Origin: Candidatus Caldarchaeum sp.
Lineage (GTDB): Archaea; Thermoproteota; Nitrososphaeria_A; Caldarchaeales; Caldarchaeaceae
Reading direction: 5' to 3'
Assembly (NCBI GenBank): GCA_038885755.1
Contig: JAVZZH010000003.1
Span: 96,001-160,000 of the forward strand
Length of the DNA: 64,000 nucleotides
The notes under the pieces: model-generated
What the model saw: the letters and a program-made list of their open reading frames with translations, nothing else
The model's database searches: none
What the model was told of the DNA's origin: nothing
Shown: positions 9,551-30,692 of the stretch, in pieces
How the letters are laid out: every line of letters begins with the position of its first letter
How positions within the stretch are numbered: position 1 is the stretch's first letter
Translations under genes and position numbers: made by a program

Positions 9551-10552
9551 ATGTCCCGCGACTTCAGCTATGGTGTTGGGTTGCAGACATACACAGGCGG
9601 CATGTGGGACGGTGGCCAGCCCACATTGGAGGAGCTTGCCAGCTATGTGAAGCGGGCTGAGGAGCTGGGCTACAGTACAATATGGCATACGGATAGGCTG
9701 CTACCAACAGTTCCCCCAGGATACAGCACAGCATGGTATGAGCCCCTAATCACCCTATCCGTTATCATCCCGTACATCAAGAAGGCTGGAATAGGCACCT
9801 CGGCTGTGGTGCTTCCCATGAGAAATCCAATACTGCTGGCTAAGCAGCTGGCCACTATGGATGTTCTGTCTGCTGGTAGGCTGCGGGTTGGGATAGCCAT
9901 GGGATGGTCGCAGCAGGAATATGCCGCCACAGCCACGGATTTCAAGCGCAGGTCCTCGGTTTATAGCGAATATGCTCAGGTCCTCAGCATGTTACTTACT
10001 GGTGAGAAAGTCAGCTTCCAAGGCAAGTATCTCAGCCTCTCGGATGTTGAGATAAGACCACGTCCACTCCAGAGGCCGAGACCGCCGATTTACATGGGTG
10101 GTGGCGGGCCGTGGGTTGGCGTTGACGATGCCACACGTGGGAGGCTTGAGCTGAGGGTTTTCAGCCGAATAGCCGATTATGCTGATGGGTGGATTGCCGG
10201 GGCCCGCATAGACCCAGACAGCGCCCAAAGATACATTCAATTATTGAGAAGACTTCTTTCTGAGAGGGGGAGAGACCCTGAGAAGTTCACGATACTTAAT
10301 CAGAACTTCGTATACGTCTACGGGGTAAGCGGCTCCCCTGAAGAGTTGAAGGCCAAAATCAATAAGATCGTACCCACCCCATTCGATGCAGTCTCTAAGG
10401 TATGGATTATTGGTGAAAAAGCGGATGTGGCGGCTAAGGTAGATAGGATGGTTAAGGCTGGTGTCCAGCATTTCATAGTGTGGCCTGTTGGAAACCATAC
10501 ACCCACCATAGAGTTCCTAGCTGACGAAATATTCCCCAAATATATGAAGTGA
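9551..10552 (+). CDS. Luciferase-like (LLM) flavin/F420-dependent oxidoreductase
   Basis: AEELGYSTIW, EPLITL, LPMRNPILLAKQLATMDVLSAGR, PRPLQRPRPPIYMGG, ADGW. Confidence 0.9.
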   Translation: MSRDFSYGVGLQTYTGGMWDGGQPTLEELASYVKRAEELGYSTIWHTDRLLPTVPPGYSTAWYEPLITLSVIIPYIKKAGIGTSAVVLPMRNPILLAKQLATMDVLSAGRLRVGIAMGWSQQEYAATATDFKRRSSVYSEYAQVLSMLLTGEKVSFQGKYLSLSDVEIRPRPLQRPRPPIYMGGGGPWVGVDDATRGRLELRVFSRIADYADGWIAGARIDPDSAQRYIQLLRRLLSERGRDPEKFTILNQNFVYVYGVSGSPEELKAKINKIVPTPFDAVSKVWIIGEKADVAAKVDRMVKAGVQHFIVWPVGNHTPTIEFLADEIFPKYMK

Positions 10553-11159: not shown

Positions 11160-12170
11160 TCACTTCACCAGTCGAGTAGCTGCCTCCACAATCTTGTCAG
11201 CAGTGACCATATACTTCTTTTCAAGTTCATGCGACTGGGGGGCTGGCATGGTTGGAGAGTTCAGCCTGATGATGGGCGCCTCCAAGTAATCAAATGCATA
11301 TTCACATACGTAGCTGGCCACTTCAGCCGATATACCGCATGTCTTCACACTATCCTCCGCAACTATTAGCCTGTTGGTCTTCCTCACCGATTCTAAGATT
11401 GTCTGATAATCCATCGGCACTATAGTCCTCAAGTCTATGACTTCGGCTTGGACCCCGTTCCCAGCCAGCTGTTCAGCTGCTGCCATAGCCTCGGAAACGA
11501 CCCTGGAAACAGCTACGATTGTCAGGTCGTCGCCAGACTTCTTCACATCAGCCCTGCCTATGGGTGTCAGATACTCTTCCTCAGGCACAGGACCCTTATA
11601 CCCATAGTATGTTCGGTTCACATATAGGGCTCCTGACTCCACGAATAGGACTGGGTCATCATCCCTTATCGAAGATTTTATCAGCCCCTTAGCATCTTTG
11701 GGAGTGGCGGGTGCCACAATCTTGAGGCCGGGAGCTTGCATGAAAGAAGCTGCTAGGAACTGGGTGTGTTGGCTACCGTACGCCCGGCCGAGGCTATACT
11801 GTGTCCTAACAACTAGGGGAAGCTTAACCTGACCTGCGCTCATGAAACGCATCTTAGAAGCATGTGTAACCAGCTGGTCGAAGGCGATACCTGCGAAGTC
11901 GAAGAACATCAGCTCCGCCACAGGTCGCAACCCGTTAAGAGCAGCTCCTATCGCAGCACCCACTATAGCTATCTCCGAAATGGGTGTGTCCAAGACCCTC
12001 TTGGGGCCAAACTCTTTGAGAAGGTCTTTGGTTACCTTGTAGACGCCTCCCGAGGCTGCCACCTCCTCGCCGAAGACTATCACCCTTTCATCCCGACGCA
12101 TCTCTTCACGAAGCCCCTCATTCAGGGCCTCGACATATGTAAGCTCCCTCACAGCCAACCCTCTACTCAC
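11160..12170 (-). CDS. 2-oxoacid/acetoin dehydrogenase E1 beta subunit
   Basis: GEEV..GGVY, DTPISE, RPVAELMF, DAKGL, IDLRT. Confidence 0.93.
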   Translation of the reverse strand: MSRGLAVRELTYVEALNEGLREEMRRDERVIVFGEEVAASGGVYKVTKDLLKEFGPKRVLDTPISEIAIVGAAIGAALNGLRPVAELMFFDFAGIAFDQLVTHASKMRFMSAGQVKLPLVVRTQYSLGRAYGSQHTQFLAASFMQAPGLKIVAPATPKDAKGLIKSSIRDDDPVLFVESGALYVNRTYYGYKGPVPEEEYLTPIGRADVKKSGDDLTIVAVSRVVSEAMAAAEQLAGNGVQAEVIDLRTIVPMDYQTILESVRKTNRLIVAEDSVKTCGISAEVASYVCEYAFDYLEAPIIRLNSPTMPAPQSHELEKKYMVTADKIVEAATRLVK

Positions 12171-13190
12171 CTACACAGGAGTAGAGTAAACCAGTGAAGA
12201 GAGCTTCTCATATTCGTATACTGGTGAGTTGAGAACCTCATCCACTACAACATCTAGCTGACGGGCGACATCAGCCTCGATCGTCTTCTTCTCCTCGTCT
12301 TGGAGTAAACCAGCTGATTTCATCTTTTCAACCAACATGTCTATTGGGTCTCTTCGCAGCCATTCCTCAATCTCTTCCCTAGGCCTATATCCTGTCCCTA
12401 GGTCATAAGCCCCGTGTCCTTTGAATCGGTATGTCTTACATTCGATGAAAGCCGGGCCGGCGCCGGACCTTATCTTATCCAAGGCTTTAAGGGTTGTTTC
12501 ATAGACTTCTATGACATCATTCCCAAAGGCGGTGTAGGCTGGCATACCATAGCAGGCAGCCCTCGCCATTATGCTTTCGCCTGCAAAGACGGATTTGAGT
12601 GGTGTGGTCATGGCATAGGTATTATTCTCACACACAAAGAGAACTGGGAGCTTCCAAGCAGCCGCTAGGTTAAGCGCCTCATGGAACGCTCCGGTATTGA
12701 CTGCACCGTCTCCGAAGAAGGCGACAGCCACATTCTTACTCTCCCTGTATTTGAACGCCAATCCCACACCCACAGCGATAGGTATGCCGCTGCCAACTAT
12801 AGCTGTCGCGAGCGGGATACCAAGCTCTGCAGAGATCGGGGCATGCATGGAGCCTCCCAAGCCCTTACACGTCCCCACAGCCTTACCCAAAATCTCTCCC
12901 AACATGGCTTTCATCGGTATGCCACGGGCTATTCCATGTCCATGGCCTCTATAAGTTGAGATAATCACATCATCCTTCTCGAGAGCCTCAATAACACCAA
13001 CCGCCACACCCTCCTGCCCAATGTACAGGTGTGTTGGTCCCAGAATACGTCCCTCACGGTATAGCTTCTCCACACGCTCCTCGAACATCCTAATCTCGAT
13101 CATCTTCCGCAACATGCCCAGGAGCTTGTCGCGGGAGATGAGAAGTTGCTGACGAGAACTCATTTGCGGTTGGCTGATTCTCTGAGACAT
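12171..13190 (-). CDS. 2-oxoacid/acetoin dehydrogenase E1 alpha subunit (start may be 13163 given the TATA at 13192-13198)
   Basis: HLYIGQE, YRGHGH, GGSMH, GDGA...ENN TPP-binding motif, TYRFKGH. Confidence 0.93.
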   Translation of the reverse strand: MSQRISQPQMSSRQQLLISRDKLLGMLRKMIEIRMFEERVEKLYREGRILGPTHLYIGQEGVAVGVIEALEKDDVIISTYRGHGHGIARGIPMKAMLGEILGKAVGTCKGLGGSMHAPISAELGIPLATAIVGSGIPIAVGVGLAFKYRESKNVAVAFFGDGAVNTGAFHEALNLAAAWKLPVLFVCENNTYAMTTPLKSVFAGESIMARAACYGMPAYTAFGNDVIEVYETTLKALDKIRSGAGPAFIECKTYRFKGHGAYDLGTGYRPREEIEEWLRRDPIDMLVEKMKSAGLLQDEEKKTIEADVARQLDVVVDEVLNSPVYEYEKLSSLVYSTPV

Positions 13191-13239
13191 ATTTAAAAAT
13201 TGCGGACCCTGCTCAGGAATGATCGCTAGCCGCCATGCT

Positions 13240-14085
13240 CAGTTTGATATGCCGGAATTCTAAGGCGTCTTTCCAACTAACAGGTTCATGCCCGCCGTCC
13301 ATACATGCCTTCTCAAAATAGTCTGCTAAGGCATCCCTAATCCTATCGTGTAATCAGTTCGCTATCATTGCCCTAGCTCTCTAAAAGGATGACATACCTC
13401 TAAGGTCAGCCCACCCATTCTCAGCTACATGTCGATTGATAGAAACTATCCTAGAGAATTTCCCCTCTGAAGCGGTGGATGGAAGAGTGCTGCCAGAGGG
13501 CATGCTCTAGGTTGGGGGTATGGGAAGACCTTAGCTGCCACCCACCAGCAATCTAGCCAAGTATTTCCGTTTCACAGCCCGCAATGTTTAACTCAACAGA
13601 CCCCACTCCACCATAGGCCCCCCGCACCGCTCAGGCTTGTCCGTAACTACAATAGCAGCTATCTTTTTCCAAGGGCATCTCGACACAGGTTCTCCCACCC
13701 TATCCAAGACGTTCTTTATCAGCACAGGCTCGTCATTCCTGATAAGATACGCATCATGCATCATCGGCTTGGAAACATTCACCTCAACCATGGCGGGCAT
13801 TGCATCAATGGATAGGGAGGGTACGACGTCATTCTGGGCCACCCCGGTCTATGTTATGAAGAGCGTGTAAATCTTTTTAGCCTACGGTATCCCTCCACAC
13901 CTTATCAGCCTGCTATACTCCGAGAGCCAGTAGCCGGCAACGCATAAGGCCCCGCTGTTGTCCATATCGCGGGATGTCTTTCCAGAGGCTACTGGATAGC
14001 GGCGGCCCACTTGTATGGATGAGAGCCCTTCCTCAAACAAAGAGGTTGTCGTTCCACCGCGAAGCAATTTGTGTTACCGATATTT
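13240..14085 (-). pseudogene. Degraded acetyl-CoA hydrolase/succinate CoA-transferase family gene
   Basis: Fragments RRYP, YWLSEYSRLIR.G, VVPSLSID..VEVN..MHDAY, KIAAIVVTDKPE, GGHEP. Frameshifts and apparent deletions. Confidence 0.7.
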
Positions 14086-14087
14086 GT

Positions 14088-15062
14088 TCAGTCATATCTT
14101 GGTGCTATCTCGTTAGCAACATACTCCAATACATCCAAATCCCTTGTGAGAGGTATGAGGTTAAAGTGGGTTAGACCCGCTGAAATCTGTTCATCTATGC
14201 GCTTAGCCAGTTCCACTTTATCACATATGAAATACTGTTTCCTAGCCTCCTCGAATGGCATAGCCAAAACCTGTGACACATCCTCTGCAGCTTTGTTCTC
14301 ACGTCCGTCGAGTAGGTAGACGTATTTGTGGGACATCATTGGAAAGTTGCTGTCATCCTTCCTAAGAGACTTGAGATGTTTACGGAGTATCTCTATGCTT
14401 TTTCTGATATATTCCACCGGTACGTATGTCGCTGCATACCAGCCATCACCCAGTTCGGCAGCCCTTCTCAACAGCCTCTCAAACCGGCTTGGGTCGTTCA
14501 ACGACCTGCCGCCGGCTCCAATTATTATTGGTGGGTGGGGTTTCTGGATTGGCTTCGGCTCTAGACGTATATCCTTGAACCTCCAGAATCTACCCTCCCA
14601 ACTGGCTGACTCCTCAGTCCAGAGCAGCTTCATTATTTTTACGGCCTCCTCGAATCTCCTACCCCTCTCCTTCATACTAACTCCCACAAGCTCGTATTCC
14701 TTGTCGAGCCAGCCAATTGCTACACCTAAGATGAATCGGCCGTTGGAGATGACATCCAGGGTCGCAACCTCTTTAGCCAGGACTCCGGGGTTTCTCAAGG
14801 GAAGTATTACTATGGCTGTACCTATCTTCACCTTCTTGACAGCCGAGGATACGGCGGCCATAGTGACTAGGGGCTCGTACCAGCTTGTGGAGAGAAGCGG
14901 TGGGGCCATTACAAAATGTTCTGCATGCCAGATGGATGTGTATCCCAGCCTCTCAACCTCTCGACAGTAAGAGGCCAGCTCCTCACCCGACATGTATCCC
15001 CCCTTCCAAGTTCCGCCACAGTAGTCGGGCAAAACAACTCCGAAAGTTGCTCTATTCCTCAC
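14088..15062 (-). CDS. Luciferase-like (LLM) flavin/F420-dependent oxidoreductase, paralog of 9551..10552
   Basis: GYTSIWHAEH, EPLVTM, LPLRNP..LAKEVATLDVISNGR, PKPIQKPHPPIIIG, GDGW. Confidence 0.92.
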   Translation of the reverse strand: MRNRATFGVVLPDYCGGTWKGGYMSGEELASYCREVERLGYTSIWHAEHFVMAPPLLSTSWYEPLVTMAAVSSAVKKVKIGTAIVILPLRNPGVLAKEVATLDVISNGRFILGVAIGWLDKEYELVGVSMKERGRRFEEAVKIMKLLWTEESASWEGRFWRFKDIRLEPKPIQKPHPPIIIGAGGRSLNDPSRFERLLRRAAELGDGWYAATYVPVEYIRKSIEILRKHLKSLRKDDSNFPMMSHKYVYLLDGRENKAAEDVSQVLAMPFEEARKQYFICDKVELAKRIDEQISAGLTHFNLIPLTRDLDVLEYVANEIAPRYD

Positions 15063-15083
15063 GAGCGGGTTGGCCGCCGGTTA

Positions 15084-16463
15084 TTATTTAACTACTACTT
15101 TTAACCGCCTCCCCTGACTGTACGCCGACCCGGCACTCTGACACTCTCCAGCATCCGGTCTAGTAGCAAGCCATGCCACCACCCTGCATGGAGCAGCCTC
15201 ACAGCCCACAATGGGTATCGGGAAGGCGGTAATCCACACCCTCCTCACCCCGTCCAGCGGTGTTAGATTCAAGTTCTCCAGGATCAATATATCATTAGAT
15301 AGCAGTATCTTGTGGATTGGATAGTCAAATCCATCCTTCCTCATGTGATACGGTATTTCTGGTGTTAGGGTGTCAACACCTATCATACTCACCTTAGCAT
15401 CACACAGCCACCACGCCACTTCCTCGGATATGAAGGGATGTAGATTGTATTCGGGCTGCCTGAAGAAGCCACCCCATCCAGTATTAAAGAATACCATAGA
15501 GTTTTCCCCGACAAGCTCTTCATATCCGCTGACATCACGGAGGGTGATGGGCTGGTTGCAGTTCTTCCTTACCTTGATTATGACACATTCTCCCGCAAAC
15601 CTAGAGAGATCATACTCCTCTATCGTCTTCCCCCTCTCGAAAAACTGTCTAGGCGTATCTACATGTGTTCCTATGTGGGAGGGCATGTAGATATTTGTAA
15701 TGTTGACGGAGTCAACCATCACGTTGCAGGCTGTCCTTATCTGGGGCGGGGTCAGTATCTTGGGAATATGGGGCATTCCATTGAATATTGGTTGGGATAG
15801 ATCTACGATCAGGGGCCTGTTAAGCTTATTCCCCTTGGCTCTCGTGAGGGCGTCCACTCTTCTCCTCAACTCACGTACTGTGAGTGTCTCCTCAACCACC
15901 TGACGGAATAACCTATCCTGCAGCGCCCTATCACGCACCTTTAGTAATACCCTAGCATGTAGAAGCCCGAATCTATTGGTATCGATACTACCGCTCCGGA
16001 CCGCTCTTATGATATTGGGGCTTAGCGACAGCAGCTGCACCCGGTTATAGACGTATTCTTTACGGACACCGACCAACCGCGCAATATCCTCATATGTTCT
16101 GCCAAACCTAGCTTTCCATGTCTCGAAAAGGTCTGCCTCCTCTAGAGGGTTCTTGTCCTTCCTAAACAGGTTTTCCACCGCATTCTGTATGAGAACATGC
16201 TCATCATCGAGCTCTTCCACAATCGTACTGATCTTGTTCAGCCCTGCAAGCATGGCTGCCTCGAGACGCCGCCTACCCCAGACTAGCTCGTAAAACCCGT
16301 CTGCCGTGGGTCTGACCTTTATAGGTACATCCACATCACCCCTCGCCTTAAGGGATTTTGCAAGCTCCACCACATCGCCCAAGTCCTTCCTCTCGGGCAG
16401 CCAGCTGATGAGACGTATCTTCTCGACCGGGATCTTCTTGATTTTAGAGGAGCTATTCATCAC
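15084..16463 (-). CDS. ParB/Spo0J (ParBc + HTH) fused to a C-terminal cyclase/kynurenine formamidase-like domain
   Basis: N half: PIKVR..YELVWGRRRLEAA, ENLFRKDKNPLEEA, HTH TYEDIARLVGVRKEYVYNR, HARVLL, LTVRELR. C half: VDLSQPI, HIGTHVDTP, IGVDT, IHKILL..ILENL, AAPCRVVA. One continuous frame. Confidence 0.88.
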   Translation of the reverse strand: MMNSSSKIKKIPVEKIRLISWLPERKDLGDVVELAKSLKARGDVDVPIKVRPTADGFYELVWGRRRLEAAMLAGLNKISTIVEELDDEHVLIQNAVENLFRKDKNPLEEADLFETWKARFGRTYEDIARLVGVRKEYVYNRVQLLSLSPNIIRAVRSGSIDTNRFGLLHARVLLKVRDRALQDRLFRQVVEETLTVRELRRRVDALTRAKGNKLNRPLIVDLSQPIFNGMPHIPKILTPPQIRTACNVMVDSVNITNIYMPSHIGTHVDTPRQFFERGKTIEEYDLSRFAGECVIIKVRKNCNQPITLRDVSGYEELVGENSMVFFNTGWGGFFRQPEYNLHPFISEEVAWWLCDAKVSMIGVDTLTPEIPYHMRKDGFDYPIHKILLSNDILILENLNLTPLDGVRRVWITAFPIPIVGCEAAPCRVVAWLATRPDAGECQSAGSAYSQGRRLKVVVK

Positions 16464-16551
16464 TTTTTGACGACCTAGGTATATATATAAGCAGTTGGTT
16501 TCGTGCCCCTGCTAGGGCTTTAAGTTGCCGGCTGTTAAACCCGTTATCCTA

Positions 16552-16641
16552 GTGTCCGGATAAGGACGGTATTTAATTACTGGATGGTTTCTCTCCTCTT
16601 GTATGGCTCTAGGCTGGCTGTCAAAAGCGTTATCCGGACAC
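16552..16641. promoter_or_regulatory. Perfect 12-bp inverted repeat GTGTCCGGATAA-N66-TTATCCGGACAC in a divergent promoter region
   Basis: Read directly at 16552-16563 and 16630-16641, between TATA elements near 16480 and 16663. The regulatory role is inferred. Confidence 0.55.
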
Positions 16642-16693
16642 CACCATCCCAGTTTGCACAAGATTTATATGCCTTACAGCGGAGCCACAATCC

Positions 16694-18100
16694 ATGAAGG
16701 AGAAAAACTGTGAAGCCGCTGGAGAGCAACGAATCACCAGACGGAGGGCCATCAGCAATGCTGTAGCCGCAGGCGTAGTGGTCGGTGTTGGGATAGTAGC
16801 CGGACTGGGGGGGTATTTCGCCGGAGCATCGTCAAGCGGTAGGGTTGAAACCGTTACACAGAAGGAGACAGTTGCAGTGGGCGGGCAGACAGTGACCGTG
16901 ACAAACACAGTGACACAGACTACAACAGCCACAGTCACAGGAACCGCGGGATCTGACAAACCTGTGATCATTGGATACACACTACCCAAGACCGGTGGAT
17001 TCGCTGCAAACGGTGTGGTACATGATATCGCTGATGAGGTGGCTATAAGGAAAATAAACGAGACTGGCGGATTCTTAGGAAGACCTGTCAGAAGGCTTGT
17101 CTATGACGACCGCTCCGACATTTCACAGATACCTCCTCTCTATGAACGGCTGATAACACAGGACAAGGTGGACCTCATCGTGGGTCCATACGCTACACCA
17201 TTCATAGCAGCAGCCATGCCTGTGGCGGAGAAATATAGAAAGGTCTACATCTTTGACTCATACACACTTCCCAAACAGGCTACCTATGAATTCGCGTTCT
17301 CCAGCTGGGCCACAGGATACAACACTGACATCGAATGGCCGACTCTATTGTTTGAGGCTTTGCAGAACTCGGCAGGTAAGCTTCCCAAGCGTCTTGTCGT
17401 CGTGCATAGCACGCATCCCGGAGCAACATTCGTGGCCAGCGGTGTCCCCACTGTTGCAGAGAGATTCGGGATCGAGGTGCTTGATGTGATCAGATACGAG
17501 CTGGGTACCACAGACTTCCTACCGATAGCGACACGGCTGAAGGAGCTGAAGCCGGAGTTCCTCCTACAGGCTGGGCTCGTGCTCGATGAGAGTAACATGA
17601 GACAAGCTTTGGACAAAGTTGGCTTCATCCCGTATGGCCATTCAAGTCTCTGGCCTTCGGTGGGCGCATTGCTCGGCCTCGGTCCACTAGGAGATGGGTT
17701 GATAAGCCAGTCTGTCTTCGAGGCGCATATACCGTTTACGCAAGATGCAGAGGCCAGATATTTTGTTGAAAACTACCAGAAGCGGGCGAGAGAGGCTGGT
17801 CTAGCCTACTGGAAAGCTGATACACAGAGTGGCACGAGCTACGCCATGTTCCAGATATTGAGGGAGGCTGTCAGGGGGTCAGGCTCTCTCAACGATGAGG
17901 ACATTGGTAAGTGGCTCAAGAAAAACAAGGTTGATACAATATTCGGAGAGCTCACTTTCGACGGCCCCAACAATTATGGACCCATGAAGACTTGGATAGC
18001 TCAGATTCAGAACGGCGAGCAGATAGTAGTGTGGCCACCAGACTACGCAAAGCCAAGGTCGAAGCTACAGTATCCATCACCACTAGCCAAGGGCTACTAG
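16694..18100 (+). CDS. Liv-type (HAAT) ABC transporter substrate-binding protein with a Tat-like signal and Thr-rich linker
   Basis: ITRRRAI plus hydrophobic helix, T/V-rich linker, INETGGFLGRPV..YDD, DKVDLIVGPY, DTIFG, QIQNG..VVWP. Confidence 0.9.
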   Translation: MKEKNCEAAGEQRITRRRAISNAVAAGVVVGVGIVAGLGGYFAGASSSGRVETVTQKETVAVGGQTVTVTNTVTQTTTATVTGTAGSDKPVIIGYTLPKTGGFAANGVVHDIADEVAIRKINETGGFLGRPVRRLVYDDRSDISQIPPLYERLITQDKVDLIVGPYATPFIAAAMPVAEKYRKVYIFDSYTLPKQATYEFAFSSWATGYNTDIEWPTLLFEALQNSAGKLPKRLVVVHSTHPGATFVASGVPTVAERFGIEVLDVIRYELGTTDFLPIATRLKELKPEFLLQAGLVLDESNMRQALDKVGFIPYGHSSLWPSVGALLGLGPLGDGLISQSVFEAHIPFTQDAEARYFVENYQKRAREAGLAYWKADTQSGTSYAMFQILREAVRGSGSLNDEDIGKWLKKNKVDTIFGELTFDGPNNYGPMKTWIAQIQNGEQIVVWPPDYAKPRSKLQYPSPLAKGY

Positions 18101-18131
18101 TAGGTCGGAACCCACACCAACAGCGGCTCAA

Positions 18132-19001
18132 GTGGATGGCATGGTATCGGTTGCGGGGGTAATCCAGAGCCTCCTGACAGGCACGCTAGTGGGAGGATTC
18201 TACGGCCTGTTTGCGCTCGGACTCTCAATGTCCTGGGGGGTCTTGTACATCATAAACATGTCCTACTTCCCATTCGCCGTCCTGTCCGCCTACATAACAT
18301 ATGCGGTTGTGACAACCCTCGGCTTCGACCCATTCATCTCCCTCATTTTTTCCATCCCCAGTTTCTTCATCATCGGCATCCTCATGCAACTCTTCTTCAA
18401 CAGATTCAAGATAGACATATTCAGGTCGCTGATAATCACCTTCGCCCTATTCGTGGTGGTTGAGAATACACTGATTTATGTATGGACGGCTGATGTTCGG
18501 CGCGTACCAGTGGGACTACTTGGCAGCTCGTTCTTAATCGGCTCCATGTATGTTCCAATAGGCGAGCTCATAGCCTTCTTCATAGGGGTGGCCATAGTTT
18601 TTGCCAACATGTTTATACTGAAGAAGACGAGGTTGGGGCTGGCTCTTAGGGCAGTAGCTGAGAATAGGGAGGCATCAGCCATGTGGGGTGTGAACTATTC
18701 TAGAATAGCCCTAGTAGTCGGTGGCCTGTCAATGTGCTATGTTGCAATAGCTGGATTATTCATCGCAATATTCTTCCCCTTCACCCCAAGCCATGGAAGC
18801 CTCTTCATAGGGAGGATATTCGCAGTTACAATCTTTGGAGGTCTTGGAAGCGTCACAGGAGCCTTCATAGCTGGTATAATACTCGGAGTCGCCGAGTCTG
18901 TGGCCGCCATACTCTTCGCACCGTCATGGTCGCCTCTAGTAGTGTTCCTACTGCTTTTGATTATACTCGTAGTCAAGCCCAGCGGGCTGACGTGGCGATG
19001 A
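18132..19001 (+). CDS. Liv-type ABC permease (LivH-like)
   Basis: YGLFALGL, KTRLGLALRAVAEN, FGGLGS, VKPSGL. Confidence 0.92.
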   Translation: MDGMVSVAGVIQSLLTGTLVGGFYGLFALGLSMSWGVLYIINMSYFPFAVLSAYITYAVVTTLGFDPFISLIFSIPSFFIIGILMQLFFNRFKIDIFRSLIITFALFVVVENTLIYVWTADVRRVPVGLLGSSFLIGSMYVPIGELIAFFIGVAIVFANMFILKKTRLGLALRAVAENREASAMWGVNYSRIALVVGGLSMCYVAIAGLFIAIFFPFTPSHGSLFIGRIFAVTIFGGLGSVTGAFIAGIILGVAESVAAILFAPSWSPLVVFLLLLIILVVKPSGLTWR

Positions 19002-19960
19002 GGGCTAGAAGACAGACAGCCTATACGATTATCATGTTATCCTCATCATTCATAATACTGCTCGCATTACCCTACATGGGGATTTCAGCGTTCATGATAT
19101 CCTTTCTGTTATCCGTATTCATTTGGGTTACGTTGGCGGTCAGCTGGAACATATTATCGGGCTACGTAGGCTACTTCAGCTTCGGACACACGGGGTTCTT
19201 CGGCTCGGGAGCATTCGCATCAGCCGTCACCGACTTCTTCTTCGAGATAGACTACTTCCTAACAATTCCCATAGCTGGTGCTGTTACAACGGCGATGGCC
19301 GCGGGGCTGGGGCTTGTCACATTCAGGCTCAGGAGGCTCCGTGGCGAGCTCTTTGCACTAACAACGCTGGTCCTAACCTCTGTCTCCTCAATAGTAGTGA
19401 TAAACAACTGGGGGAGCGGCATTGTCATGCGCTCAGTTAAGGCCTTCTGGCCATTCATCAGCATACCGCATATTTTCTACACTCTAGCGCTAATATTGTG
19501 TTTTATCAGTATCTATATCTCGGTGGCGATATATCGGTCGAGGCTTGGTCTAAACTTCTTCGCAATAAGGGATGATGAGGAGGCTGCAGAGGCCATAGGT
19601 ATCAACACCTTCAAGAGTAAGATGATAGCTTTTTGCATCAGCTCACTACTGGTAGGTGTGGCTGGAGCGGTCTTTGGCGGCTGGATAAAGTATGTCTGGC
19701 CCGAAACCGTATTCAGCTTAAACTATTCGTTGTATCCCATACTTATGACCATACTGGGAGGTATGGGAACCTGGATTGGGCCAATCGTTGGCGGTGTAAT
19801 CCTCACCACAATCTTCCAAATTGTAGCTGGTGGAGAGGCCGTGCTTAACAACATCATCTTAGGCTCGCTACTGGTGGTCGTGATGATATTCCTACCACGT
19901 GGACTCTTCAACCTTGTACTATCCGGCTACAGGAGAGTCAGGAGTCCAAGGCATCTGTAG
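18998..19960 (+). CDS. Liv-type ABC permease (LivM-like)
   Basis: ATGA overlap with the upstream stop; SWNILSGYVGYFSFGH, AIRDDEEAAEAIG, LGGMGT, PRGL. Confidence 0.92.
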   Translation: MRARRQTAYTIIMLSSSFIILLALPYMGISAFMISFLLSVFIWVTLAVSWNILSGYVGYFSFGHTGFFGSGAFASAVTDFFFEIDYFLTIPIAGAVTTAMAAGLGLVTFRLRRLRGELFALTTLVLTSVSSIVVINNWGSGIVMRSVKAFWPFISIPHIFYTLALILCFISIYISVAIYRSRLGLNFFAIRDDEEAAEAIGINTFKSKMIAFCISSLLVGVAGAVFGGWIKYVWPETVFSLNYSLYPILMTILGGMGTWIGPIVGGVILTTIFQIVAGGEAVLNNIILGSLLVVVMIFLPRGLFNLVLSGYRRVRSPRHL

Positions 19961-20009
19961 GCTTTGCCTGCTAAAACGTTTATAAGCACCATGGGAGCGG
20001 AGAGCGTGG

Positions 20010-20711
20010 ATGTCCCTGCTGAAACTCTTGAATGTGAGCAAGTCATTCGGTGGACTAAAGGCGGTTAACAAGGTTTCGATGGATGTTCCTCCCAACGTAA
20101 TTTTGGGTTTGATCGGGCCCAACGGCTCAGGCAAGACCACATTAGTCAATCTCATCACAGGGTTCTACAGGCCTGATTCGGGCGACATTTTCTTCAAGGG
20201 TGAGAAGATAACAGGACTCAAGCCCTACCATATCGCCAACAGAGGCATAGTCAGGACCTTCCAGCTGACAAGAGTGTTCAAACAACTGACAGTTATGCAG
20301 AATCTGCTGACAGCCTTAAACTCCCACAGGGATTACAACCAGCAGAAGATGTCAGAAATTCTAGCTATGATGGGGCTTCAGCGGAAGGAGCATGTGTTGG
20401 CGGCGAATCTGTCTTATGGTGAGCAGAAACTTCTCGAGATAGGTAGAGCTCTCATGAAGGACCCTGATCTACTTATTTTGGATGAACCTGTCAGCGGGAT
20501 CAGCCCAACCATAATCGAAAGGCTAACCCAGCTGGTAAGGGATTTGAAGGGGTTGGGCAAGACAATCCTAGTCATAGAACACAACCTGAATGTAATTAGC
20601 ACAATATGCGATAGAGTCGTCGTCCTTAATTATGGAGAGAAGATCGCTGAAGGTACCTTCAATGAGATCTCGCAAGACCAACGGGTTATAATGGCATACA
20701 TAGGCGAGTGA
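20010..20711 (+). CDS. Liv-type ABC ATPase (LivG-like)
   Basis: GPNGSGKTT, RTFQ, LSYGEQK, LDEP, IEH, AYIG. Confidence 0.93.
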   Translation: MSLLKLLNVSKSFGGLKAVNKVSMDVPPNVILGLIGPNGSGKTTLVNLITGFYRPDSGDIFFKGEKITGLKPYHIANRGIVRTFQLTRVFKQLTVMQNLLTALNSHRDYNQQKMSEILAMMGLQRKEHVLAANLSYGEQKLLEIGRALMKDPDLLILDEPVSGISPTIIERLTQLVRDLKGLGKTILVIEHNLNVISTICDRVVVLNYGEKIAEGTFNEISQDQRVIMAYIGE

Positions 20712-21460
20712 GTTTCATGAGTTTGGAGATACGGGATCTAACGGCTGGATACGGGCATACTGAGGTCCTGCACGGTGTAGACATCACAGTTGTTGCCGGT
20801 GAGACAACAGCCATGATAGGGCCCAACGGGGCTGGTAAGACAACTCTCCTGAAGACTATAATGGGTCTTGTCAAAGCCCGTAGTGGAACTATCCTCTATA
20901 AGGTTGACGGCAGGATTGAAGACCTTAACCGCTCTGGCCCTCACACCCGTGTGAGGTCTGGGATATGTATGGTCCCCGAGAGCGGGAGAGTCTTCCAAAA
21001 GATGACCGTCCTGGAAAATCTTAGATTCGCTGCTTATACAATCAAGGATAAGGGGATCATTGCTGAGCGCATGAACAGGGTTTTTCAACTCTTCCCCATA
21101 TTAAACAAGAGACGAAATCAGTTGGCCGGTACTCTAAGCGGTGGGGAGCAGGCGATGCTGGCTATCGGGAAGGCCTTGATGCTCAGCCCAAGACTAATCC
21201 TCTTGGACGAGCCCTCGATAGGGTTGGCGCCCAAGGTGGTGAGCGACGTCTACTCTAAGCTGAGGGAGATTAACGCATTAGGTGTAACCCTCTTCATAGT
21301 GGAGCAGAACGTTGATAAAGCTTTGAGCGTTGCGACGCATCTCTATGTGCTCAGCCAAGGCAAGATAGTTTACTCGGGAAGTCCTAGGGATGTTAAGAAG
21401 GAGGAGCTATTCGCCAGATACTATGCCGGCTATGGTGAGGTGACGCAAAAAAATAGATAG
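20708..21460 (+). CDS. Liv-type ABC ATPase (LivF-like)
   Basis: GPNGAGKTT, LSGGEQAML, LDEPSIGLAP, VEQN. Confidence 0.93.
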   Translation: MSFMSLEIRDLTAGYGHTEVLHGVDITVVAGETTAMIGPNGAGKTTLLKTIMGLVKARSGTILYKVDGRIEDLNRSGPHTRVRSGICMVPESGRVFQKMTVLENLRFAAYTIKDKGIIAERMNRVFQLFPILNKRRNQLAGTLSGGEQAMLAIGKALMLSPRLILLDEPSIGLAPKVVSDVYSKLREINALGVTLFIVEQNVDKALSVATHLYVLSQGKIVYSGSPRDVKKEELFARYYAGYGEVTQKNR

Positions 21461-24224: not shown

Positions 24225-24880
24225 TAAGCTGGGCTTGAACGGGGACCAGCCGGGAATCTCTCCCAGTAACATCTATGTATAGACTCTCGCTGGTCATGGG
24301 CTTGCCAGCAACTCTGTCATGGAGGAAGTCTGACAAGATGTGGAGCCAGTATACGTTGGGGAGCGCATGTATCTCTCCCTCTACGTCATCGTCTTCTTAA
24401 GCCCCGCAAGCTCTTCATAGAAGGCATACGCATCAGCTATTGGAGCTAGCTCATCATCCTCCCCCGCAATTATTAGGAAAGGTTTTGTGATCTTCTTCCC
24501 AAACCCCTTCAACGTCAACTTAGCGGCGAATGCGTCGAACGTCTCCTCATCGTATATGTCGGTCATGAACATGTACCGCATCTTGAACGATGGCGAAGCC
24601 GAGTTGAGCAGAGTCTTATGGCCGGGCTCAAAGCATGGCATGGCAACCGCCGTTGCCTTGACATACTCGTTGTTATACGAAGCTACTTGGGCAGCCCAGA
24701 ATGAGCCCATGCTCACACCATAGACACAGATGTTATCCGGGTCGACATCCTTCCTACTTTATGCATGTTCGGCCAGCCCTTCCGAAGTTTTCTTCAGTCA
24801 TTGGAATCTTGCGTCTCGGGTTAAGGGATTCTCCTATGCCAGGCCCATCTATTGAGGGGGCGCCCATCCCATCTGCTGGG
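24225..24880 (-). pseudogene. 5'-truncated, frameshifted alpha/beta hydrolase (2,6-dihydroxypseudooxynicotine hydrolase-like)
   Basis: DGPGIGE, DVDPDNICVYGVSMGSFW (GxSxG), AGEDDEL; N-terminal half absent. Confidence 0.7.
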
Positions 24881-30618: not shown

Positions 30619-30692
30619 CGCCGGGGGCCCGATTTGAACGGGCGACCGACGGGTTAACAGCCCGCCGCTCTACCAGGCTGAGCTACCCCGGC
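30619..30692 (-). tRNA. tRNA-Asn(GTT), intronless, CCA not encoded
   Basis: GCCGGGGTAGCTCAGCCTGGTAGAGCGGCGGG-CTGTTAA-CCCGTCGGTCGCCCGTTCAAATCGGGCCCCCGGCG folds as a cloverleaf. Confidence 0.97.

Follow-up and report, generated by a model that had tools for sequence, protein, structure and literature searches.

Clamps of the ParB-CTPase family, gated by cytidine triphosphate (CTP), have only recently come to be seen as transcription regulators, an idea that so far concerns a few bacterial mobile-element proteins: KorB from plasmid RK2, VirB from Shigella and BisD from the integrative and conjugative element (ICE) ICEclc. To our knowledge, all known ParB regulators are tuned by partner proteins (KorA and TrbA in the case of KorB) or by temperature, and none by small molecules. 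KorB, VirB and BisD act on promoters at a distance from a specific DNA site (PMC11790492, PMC12409273, PMC10770331). The existence of ParB-type transcription regulators is already known. Here we analysed a 64,000-nucleotide stretch of DNA from Candidatus Caldarchaeum sp. (contig JAVZZH010000003.1 of assembly GCA_038885755.1, positions 96,001 to 160,000; hereafter the window), in which one gene on the minus strand (15084..16463) encodes a ParB protein fused to a cyclase/kynurenine-formamidase-fold domain. We favour, with moderate confidence, the view that this protein is a one-component ParB-type regulator gated by a nucleoside triphosphate (NTP), specific to Caldarchaeales, in which a pseudoenzyme domain serves for dimerisation and sensing. 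Like KorB, VirB and BisD, the fusion combines a ParB/Srx domain carrying GxRR with a ParB-type helix-turn-helix (HTH), and like them it is not a dedicated segregation factor. Unlike these proteins, which are bacterial and plasmid- or ICE-borne, it has an archaeal host; where they dimerise by small helical C-terminal domains, it is predicted to do so by a 215-amino-acid (aa) enzyme-fold domain with a ligand pocket; and its candidate DNA site lies inside the regulator's own open reading frame (ORF). VirB lacks one of the two residues needed for hydrolysis, whereas the fusions lack both. Similarity to KorB is weak (8qa8, E 7e-6), the N-terminal half being closest to chromosomal ParB and Noc (1vz0, E 3e-23).

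The fusion also fits two general findings of a 2025 survey of ParB folds (Kaljevic et al. 2025, PMC12704722), namely the fusion of orphan ParB folds to domains particular to a lineage, and the rarity of ParA alongside archaeal ParBs that contain an HTH, which are unlikely to segregate chromosomes. The archaeal fusion partners named in its main text are CBS, ASCH and MT-A70, and the terms 'cyclase', 'kynurenine', 'formamidase' and 'PF04199' each occur there 0 times, while its supplementary datasets could list the fusion. No description was found in the literature on ParB with cyclase or kynurenine formamidase, where no paper was relevant by title or abstract and one uses 'cyclase' for a nucleotide cyclase; this is in keeping with an earlier sequence-only reading of this locus, which knew of no such description. 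The literature on ParB with Caldarchaeum yielded a mention of a prophage ParB only. Judging from sequence comparison, the features that would be new are the archaeal host, the enzyme-derived sensor/dimeriser, the lack of both hydrolysis residues throughout the family and a site in the protein's own ORF that has diversified alongside the paralogues.

Positions 15084..16463 (minus strand) form a single uninterrupted, stop-free frame of 459 aa when read from a GTG. The database version of the protein (P0002) has 458 aa and begins one codon in, at an ATG, and the true start is likely this ATG at 16460 rather than the GTG. From the N terminus, and all on the minus strand, the gene encodes a ParB_N (ParB/Srx NTP-binding) domain (16167..16445, residues 7-99; PF02195, E 1.8e-13, 50.8 bits against a cut-off of 26.3), an HTH_ParB DNA-binding domain (15846..16157, residues 103-206; PF17762, E 3.5e-18, 66.1 bits against 22.6), a short linker (15813..15845, residues 207-217), the cyclase/kynurenine-formamidase-fold domain (15162..15812, residues 218-434) that holds the predicted homodimer interface, and a poorly conserved C-terminal tail modelled with low confidence (15087..15161, residues 435-459). 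The motif GRRRLEAA lies at residues 63-70 and ENLFRKDKNPLEEA at residues 97-110. Canonical ParB/Spo0J and Noc provide the best sequence and fold match of residues 8-213 (1vz0, 6t1f, 7bnk, 6sdk), and the protein passes the ParB domain model TIGR00180 (90.3 bits against 58.45) while failing the Noc model (111.6 against a cut-off of 315). The Pfam match to Cyclase PF04199 covers residues 220-368 (E 3.7e-27, 95.7 bits) and the fold match reaches approximately residue 432, with residues 219-432 matching 1r61 (E 3e-19), 8hmo and 4co9 at a Foldseek template modelling (TM) score of 0.82-0.86 on the target. An AlphaFold2 model built on a 24-row alignment has a mean predicted local distance difference test (pLDDT) of 82.8 and a predicted TM score (pTM) of 0.50, its low-confidence parts being limited to the termini, the 209-215 portion of the linker and two loops. 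Pfam, sequence and fold searches thus agree with the sequence-only reading, which had seen a ParB with Arg patch, box and HTH followed in one frame by a cyclase domain. Across the family, 23 columns are universally conserved in ParB_N, 15 in the HTH and 14 in the cyclase. A rule for specificity positions (fixed within each of the five synteny types described below, with at least three states) was passed by just 3 positions and is uninformative, and PADLOC defence-protein models gave 0 families for P0001 and P0021 and one marginal 19-bit match for P0026, which lends no support to membership of a known anti-phage defence system.

The ParB half retains the residues for nucleotide binding and gate closure and lacks those for CTP hydrolysis. 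In MxParB, Q52 and E93 are required for CTP hydrolysis, R95 and R130 contact the nucleotide, R54, R94, E126 and N127 are required for ring closure, and the protein fails to accumulate on DNA without its C-terminal dimerisation domain (bioRxiv 10.1101/2021.05.05.442810). These positions were compared in an alignment of 29 fusions and 91 ParB hits, the latter chosen on GxRR and ENxxR and hence at 91/91 in those columns by construction. The equivalents of R94, R95, E126, N127 and R130 are retained in 29/29 fusions (GxRR at 63-66 and ENxxR at 97-101 in the window protein), and the R54 column is variable among them, with an Arg next after it in 28/29. At the Q52 column the 29 fusions have no Q (24 L, 2 I, one A, one V and one gap) and at the E93 column no E (20 R, 3 K, 3 Y and one each of F, H and W), against Q in 67/91 and E in 71/91 of the ParB hits; the equivalents in the window protein are L22 and R64. 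VirB, without one hydrolysis residue, binds CTP and is a weak CTPase (PMC10770331). Because both residues are missing family-wide, we expect no more than a switch that works by binding, its CTPase being weak or absent, and from its residues we infer that the ParB module can bind nucleotide and close, hydrolysing poorly or not at all. The proposal of a CTP-gated clamp agrees with the residues for binding and gate closure, and falls as regards the usual hydrolysing kind.

The features of a partition system are likewise missing. The ParA-binding motif, as used in the 2025 survey, occurs in 0/29 fusions against 54/91 ParB hits; whole-genome searches for the ParA families PF13614 and PF01656 gave no match within the window, in line with the absence of parA noted earlier, and the neighbour clusters scanned at the 41 loci with the fusion included no ParA either. 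The ParB_C domain (PF23552) is absent from the window protein and from the Pfam lists of all 25 fusion clusters, its place being taken by PF04199, which bears out the earlier placement of the cyclase where ParB normally dimerises. Using the parS consensus as given in PMC7022226, Table 1, no match to canonical parS was found at up to 2 mismatches in the 1.33-Mb genome (86.5% complete), with 5 matches at 3 mismatches. A canonical partition ParB, which differs from the fusion in ParB_C, in its ParA partner and motif, in parS and in its hydrolysis residues, was rejected on these grounds, and the sequence-only reading was right to see no link to partition. Two other proteins from a library of representatives, P0108 (345 aa) and P0158 (280 aa), have ParB_N and HTH with the same altered hydrolysis pattern (hydrophobic-P-x-R, G[K/Y]RR) and C-termini other than a cyclase, one of them with a long Pro/Glu-rich linker and a Cys-containing end. 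They indicate that this ParB-module lineage is wider than the cyclase fusion, and may be part of a larger group of archaeal ParB modules that are deficient in hydrolysis and have exchanged their C-terminal domains. A 284-aa protein encoded elsewhere in the genome (G000 C1:127146-128000; L002 1459-2313) gives a weak ParB_N-like match (20 bits, below the cut-off) and matched no Pfam family in a direct scan; its gene adjoins an E1 alpha gene, and similar proteins of ~287 aa occur in many genomes of the class.

The cyclase half has the same fold as KynB, isatin hydrolase and metal-dependent hydrolase/cyclase structures (4co9, 1r61/3krv, 8hmo, 5nmp; Foldseek TM 0.85 to 4co9) and most of their metal ligands. 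It differs from KynB in sitting behind a DNA-binding module and in the replacement of the catalytic His in all members. In BaKynB, His50, His54 and Asp56 coordinate one Zn, and Asp56, His161 and Glu173 coordinate the second; the acid/base, His60, is strictly conserved in 336 KynB sequences; and in this obligate dimer each subunit needs its partner to complete the pocket (PMC4243253). Mapped through phmmer alignments onto the window protein, His50 corresponds to H263 (His in 22/29 fusions), His54 to H267 and Glu173 to E396 (both invariant), and Asp56 to D269 and His161 to H384 (each at least 90% conserved). His60 corresponds to Q273, and this position is His in 0/29 proteins and 0/41 locus copies: within HxGTHxDxPxH, the fusions have Q, L, F, K, E, A or Y there. 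The nearest stand-alone cyclases retain the catalytic His in 109/110 cases (98/99 with the strict core and 11/11 with a DAAxH variant), a count that excludes the other listed proteins of 170-300 aa (17 ParB-only hits and 5 without recognisable core). The motif variant differs by subfamily; subfamily II also lacks the His50 ligand and the motif Gly, and several subfamilies have a His one position before the lost catalytic one. The arylformamidase equivalog model TIGR03035 is failed by a wide gap (59 bits against a cut-off of 223). A separate protein in a library of representatives, P0206 (499 aa), carries PF04199 after a 3-hydroxyisobutyrate-dehydrogenase-type NAD-binding module, which indicates that the cyclase fold is fused to other partners too.

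Dimerisation through this domain, which the sequence-only reading had proposed, is supported by structure prediction. A homodimer of residues 212-440 scored 0.88 on the interface measure ipSAE against 0.00 for the best of three controls (the mark applied was attained by 20/30 solved homomers and 1/23 single chains), a pass that, with solved KynB dimers in existence, shows likeness to these rather than binding by this copy. The runs share at least 94% of their contacts and pLDDT is 88 or more, and the predicted interface, formed by the 252-263 hairpin, residues 272-276 including Q273, and residues 412-429, matches the KynB description. According to the model, the cyclase domain occupies the place of ParB_C and can supply a fixed dimer in the manner of KynB. 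A conserved, metal-lined pocket without its catalytic base is what a ligand-binding pseudoenzyme would be expected to look like, and loss of the strictly conserved His fits a binding role over a catalytic one. One alternative is that of a trigger enzyme, in which the cyclase would still be an active metal-dependent amidohydrolase serving the neighbouring pathway with some other general base, and the ParB half would couple its catalytic state to DNA binding, so that the protein would be both enzyme and regulator. The conserved equivalents H267, D269, H384 and E396, the His just before the lost position in several subfamilies, and a fully intact fold (TM ~0.84 to solved hydrolases) speak for it. 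We nevertheless consider it rather unlikely, in view of a catalytic His that is strict in KynB and in all but one of the stand-alone cyclases counted and found in none of the fusions, of the further losses in subfamily II and of an equivalog score far under the cut-off.

Another important aspect is the company the fusion gene keeps. Clustering of neighbours across the 41 loci revealed five recurrent synteny types, all catabolic or transport. In type I, that of the window, the fusion gene is divergent from a Liv-type ATP-binding cassette (ABC) importer and lies upstream of genes for a luciferase-like monooxygenase, a CoA-transferase and E1 alpha and beta. Type II has a LigAB extradiol dioxygenase, FAA hydrolase, HAD, a Rieske protein, an alpha/beta hydrolase and a phosphoenolpyruvate (PEP)-utilising/PPDK_N pair; type III a 3-hydroxyacyl-CoA dehydrogenase, two luciferase-like monooxygenases, CMD, an M29-like protein, a Bmp-type substrate-binding protein (SBP) and MBL; type IV a divergent ABC SBP and permease, a 177-aa protein, a monooxygenase, UbiD decarboxylases and a CoxL-like hydroxylase; and type V a stand-alone cyclase with intact motif, an M24 creatinase-like protein, M20, an amidohydrolase and isochorismatase. 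Types VI and VII are one locus each. We set the types from the neighbours before building a quick IQ-TREE (40 rows, after removal of one 382-aa partial), in which types I, III, IV and V each form one clade with Shimodaira-Hasegawa-like approximate likelihood-ratio (SH-aLRT) values of 99-100 and the type II clade has VI and VII nested within it. Since kin share labels, what the tree mainly shows is old paralogous subfamilies each staying with one cluster. Within type II, the fusion gene remains between the LigAB block and the PEP-utilising pair even though these two exchange places and orientation, which argues for functional linkage. Genome G013 has two fusion paralogues, each in a different gene cluster.

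The window's cluster lies in a ~40-kb stretch (window 1-30700; G000 C3: ~84000-126700) with a guanine-plus-cytosine (GC) content of 0.48-0.52 against a genome mean of 0.547, ending at a tRNA-Asn gene (window 30619-30692, minus strand), which suggests a horizontally acquired catabolic island. The fusion might alternatively be read as a ParA-less ParB/parS-like module that marks, compacts, silences or maintains acquired DNA, its cyclase dimerising only and sensing nothing. A single palindromic site per genome inside the cluster (see below), a patchy distribution, the low-GC stretch with its tRNA-Asn end and the frequent link of orphan ParBs to mobile elements (PMC12704722) would suit such a role. 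We regard it as fairly improbable, considering that the window ORFs scanned included no genes for an integrase, replication or transfer, and the neighbours scanned in 41 loci none for replication or transfer; that same-genome paralogues sit in different catabolic clusters; and that mere dimerisation leaves the kept pocket, the metal ligands and the subfamily-specific motif variants unexplained.

A candidate DNA site for the fusion protein lies within its own gene. A scan for palindromes common to each type found, in types I-IV, a 14-16-bp palindrome within the fusion gene, ~470-560 nt from the called start and in every case at one alignment column, that of window residue 161, which belongs to an HTH-domain loop. 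In the window, it is a dyad-symmetric 16-mer at 15976..15991, in the HTH-coding part of the gene (codons 158-163, GSIDTN). The palindrome is TAGTATCGATACTA in type I, TTCCTACCGATAGGAA in type II, TT[C/A]GTAGCG[A/C]TACGAA in type III and TTCGTAGCGCTACGAA in type IV; the peptides encoded differ (GSIDT, PTDR, SSAT, RSAT), and changes between subfamilies fall on both arms with the symmetry retained. In 39 distinct coding sequences, of which 34 have the column, it shows the highest mean self-complementarity of 1,200 positions (6.44/8 pairs, z 7.6; next 4.31), with at least 6/8 pairs in 32/34 sequences, and five type-V sequences have a deletion there. Codons for identical amino acids are themselves identical in 298/352 cases (85%) inside the palindrome against 9,757/23,265 (42%) outside, for within-type pairs below 85% protein identity that are non-independent, so that the Fisher P is inflated. 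Given the amino acid sequence and subfamily codon usage, the observed pairing has P 0.0007-0.056 per sequence. The type-I 14-nt core (window 15977-15990) occurs once in the 1.33-Mb genome, and the type-IV 16-mer, at up to 2 mismatches, has a single match per genome in three genomes of 1.7-1.8 Mb, located each time within the fusion gene, against 0 matches for its reversed control. In type V, TCCTAGCGCTAGGA (one copy ends ...AGTA) lies between the isochorismatase and amidohydrolase genes, ~5 kb away, in 3/3 loci reaching that far, with unconserved flanks. A generalised core has 9 matches outside fusion genes in 485 kb of loci.

We take the in-gene palindrome to be a candidate cognate site, for binding or loading, of the HTH dimer. 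A ParB site inside its own gene is known from B. subtilis, where a parS lies within spo0J. Alternatively, the palindrome might serve as a hairpin in the mRNA or simply result from coding, with the protein binding elsewhere or having no specific DNA binding at all; it does lie within a coding sequence, and the RNA could fold into a 6-bp stem closed by a 4-nt loop. We judge this to be very unlikely. In types I, III and IV the central bases are symmetric as well (TCGA, GCGC), although the loop of a hairpin has no need of this, synonymous sites are constrained, pairing exceeds what amino acid sequence and codon usage would give, and subfamily V, with its deletion at that column, has a related palindrome in an intergenic position. 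As a separate observation, the type-II loci L075 and L076 have two further cores ~42 bp apart (~10253-10310), right after the LigA gene, GAGTATCGATACCC and AA[T/G]TAGCGCTATTT, which resemble type-I and type-III/IV sites.

In the sets searched, the fusion was found in a narrow group of archaea, with nearly all carrier genomes of the class in one Caldarchaeales family, and it is an accessory gene there. A word-indexed search found the three-domain architecture in 25 protein clusters with 39-100% identity, among 101 proteins with E <= 0.001, all 25 from sources named Candidatus Caldarchaeum, Nitrososphaerota or 'archaeon HR01'. In an exhaustive search, 9 of the best 150 among 1.84 billion representatives were full-length fusions, the remainder being stand-alone cyclases of ~220 aa or ParBs. 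Full-length fusions occur in 12/76 genomes of the class, 11/18 in the window's family, 1/19 in a second family and 0/39 in the other two. It is an accessory gene because the fusion query had no match in two 99%-complete genomes of the window's genus. A scan of metagenomes, in which 37 of 117 pattern matches were confirmed and gave 36 loci, helped bring the intact fused ORF to 41 loci in total, from many assemblies; at a threshold of 85% identity these form 23 groups. Two entries with a cyclase domain alone, P0018 and P0264, belong to fusion clusters as short members or fragments. The fusion architecture is real, conserved and under selection, and the architecture search that had been suggested thus returned a recurrent fusion with recurrent gene neighbourhoods in place of a unique one with separate genes in relatives. 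That a frameshift or misassembly joined two genes is a practically negligible prospect, and one already refuted by conservation, because the frame, including the ParB-cyclase junction where a stop or frameshift had been thought a danger, is intact in 41 loci, on which the argument mainly rests, while no relative with the two halves as adjoining separate genes was seen and per-run assemblies (Logan contigs) of 4 runs, which may be the source of this DNA and so are not independent evidence, show 0 differences and 0 indels over 14900-16800.

Around the fusion gene, the window has the arrangement that the sequence-only reading described. The importer (16694..21460, plus strand; an SBP beginning at 16694, two permeases and two ATPases) is divergent from it, and is syntenic with it in all type-I loci having enough flank. 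The same-strand genes downstream, from the luciferase-like monooxygenase to E1 alpha and E1 beta (11160..15062, minus strand), are also conserved in type-I loci. The monooxygenase (14088-15062, minus strand) comes next after the fusion gene, followed by a decayed acetyl-CoA hydrolase/transferase (13213-14073, minus strand) of which only fragments in three frames are left; this CoA-transferase is intact, at 484-490 aa, in orthologous loci (L040 6803-8269). A second decayed gene in the island is a 111-aa C-terminal fragment of an FrsA-like alpha/beta-hydrolase (24381-24716, minus strand), which has 412 aa in L040 (18339-19577). Of 23 window ORFs scanned (1-31.5 kb), the fusion gene alone has a DNA-binding Pfam domain, although such a scan could miss small or unrecognised regulators, so the earlier statement that no other DNA-binding regulator was recognised holds at that resolution. 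No integrase was found among them either. Stand-alone cyclases lie directly beside the fusion in L056 (756-1499), L058 (711-1457) and L077 (430-1110), all type V, and in L059 (4577-5539); those of L056, L058 and L077 have a complete HxGTHxDxPxH, and a comparison of the L056 copy with the fused cyclase domain gave only ~28% identity.

The spacer between the divergent genes (16464..16693), in which the sequence-only reading had sought the DNA target, did not yield one: it contains just two conserved TATA-like boxes, at 16480-16492 for the fusion gene and at 16653-16673 for the SBP gene, no conserved palindrome, and an insertion at 16550..16641 that resembles a miniature inverted-repeat transposable element (MITE) and is bounded by inverted GTGTCCGGATAA ends. 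The best candidate site is instead the in-gene palindrome. The inverted GTGTCCGGATAA pair was considered as an operator and rejected, since it forms the ends of a multi-copy element absent from orthologous spacers; the insertion is window-specific and not part of the regulatory system. Further copies of ~90-100 bp and ~340 bp, with inverted ends of ~16 nt containing GTGTCCGGATAA, are found at G000 C2:210697-210791, C1:163435-163786 and C3:95188-95529, and a solo end at C2:228341; the two long copies have internal sequence in common, in opposite orientation.

Putting these elements together, we propose the following mechanism for the regulator. The HTH domains of the dimer would recognise the subfamily-specific palindrome of 14-16 bp in cis, in the regulator's own gene in subfamilies I-IV and in the intergenic spacer of an adjoining operon in subfamily V. 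The ParB/Srx domain would bind a nucleoside triphosphate, probably CTP, closing the N-gate; with both hydrolysis residues missing, it would resemble VirB in working as a switch, slow or based on binding, and would not cycle as a CTPase. The cyclase-fold domain would form a constitutive dimer in place of ParB_C, and its pocket at the dimer interface may bind a substrate or intermediate of the neighbouring pathway; binding without turnover is proposed because the catalytic acid/base His is lost while most metal ligands and the pocket are kept. The output would be control of the flanking catabolic and transport operons, either through a clamp that slides away from where it was loaded, as KorB and BisD do, or by a roadblock together with autoregulation, modes proposed because ~0.5 kb separates the window promoters from the palindrome. 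The analysis shows the architecture and its conservation, the motif pattern, the synteny, the palindrome with its statistics and a predicted dimer; from these we infer that the protein binds the palindrome and a nucleotide, senses a ligand and has a regulatory output. A bolder version, which we put forward tentatively and hold to be doubtful, is a new archaeal class of one-component regulators in which a metabolite-binding pseudo-cyclase is the fixed end of a ParB clamp that loads at a palindrome in its own coding sequence and slides with unhydrolysed NTP to the flanking promoters, the pocket ligand setting loading or release, and paralogues having co-diversified in pocket, palindrome and cluster.

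Several points weigh against the proposed regulator. The dimer score may reflect the model's memory of solved KynB dimers, and the domain, having kept most metal ligands, could remain catalytic with another base. Which nucleotide a ParB fold prefers cannot be told from its sequence (PMC12704722), so CTP is a default guess. The idea that the sensor was copied from a neighbouring enzyme was rejected, the type-V stand-alone cyclase being only 28-29% identical to the fused domains. A site 0.5 kb inside a gene is not in a classical operator position, and no conserved operator was found at the promoters: upstream regions aligned in the five synteny types have the TATA-like boxes in type I and nothing in common elsewhere, a comparison limited by uncertainty of ORF starts. 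At the homologous place, types VI and VII have 0 and 2 of 8 pairs, the window's own palindrome is imperfect (6/8 pairs, P 0.032 alone), and 4/8 type-I sequences have a central or arm mismatch; the non-independence of pairs in the codon comparison counts here as well. Finally, the synteny types are our own, with labels shared by kin and a tree that is a quick one, and the organism is known solely from metagenome assemblies.

If the proposed regulator is as we suppose, it would extend regulation by ParB clamps to archaea and to ordinary control of catabolic genes, and would provide a natural ParB clamp that dimerises, at one end, through a domain containing a ligand pocket, as well as a natural 'hydrolysis-dead' ParB. 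The family would also be a tractable one, with one short subfamily-specific site per genome per paralogue, thermostable proteins and five paralogous sets for specificity swaps. For the biology of Caldarchaeales, the public labels 'chromosome partitioning protein' and 'cyclase family protein' that these proteins carry are misleading in metabolic reconstruction.

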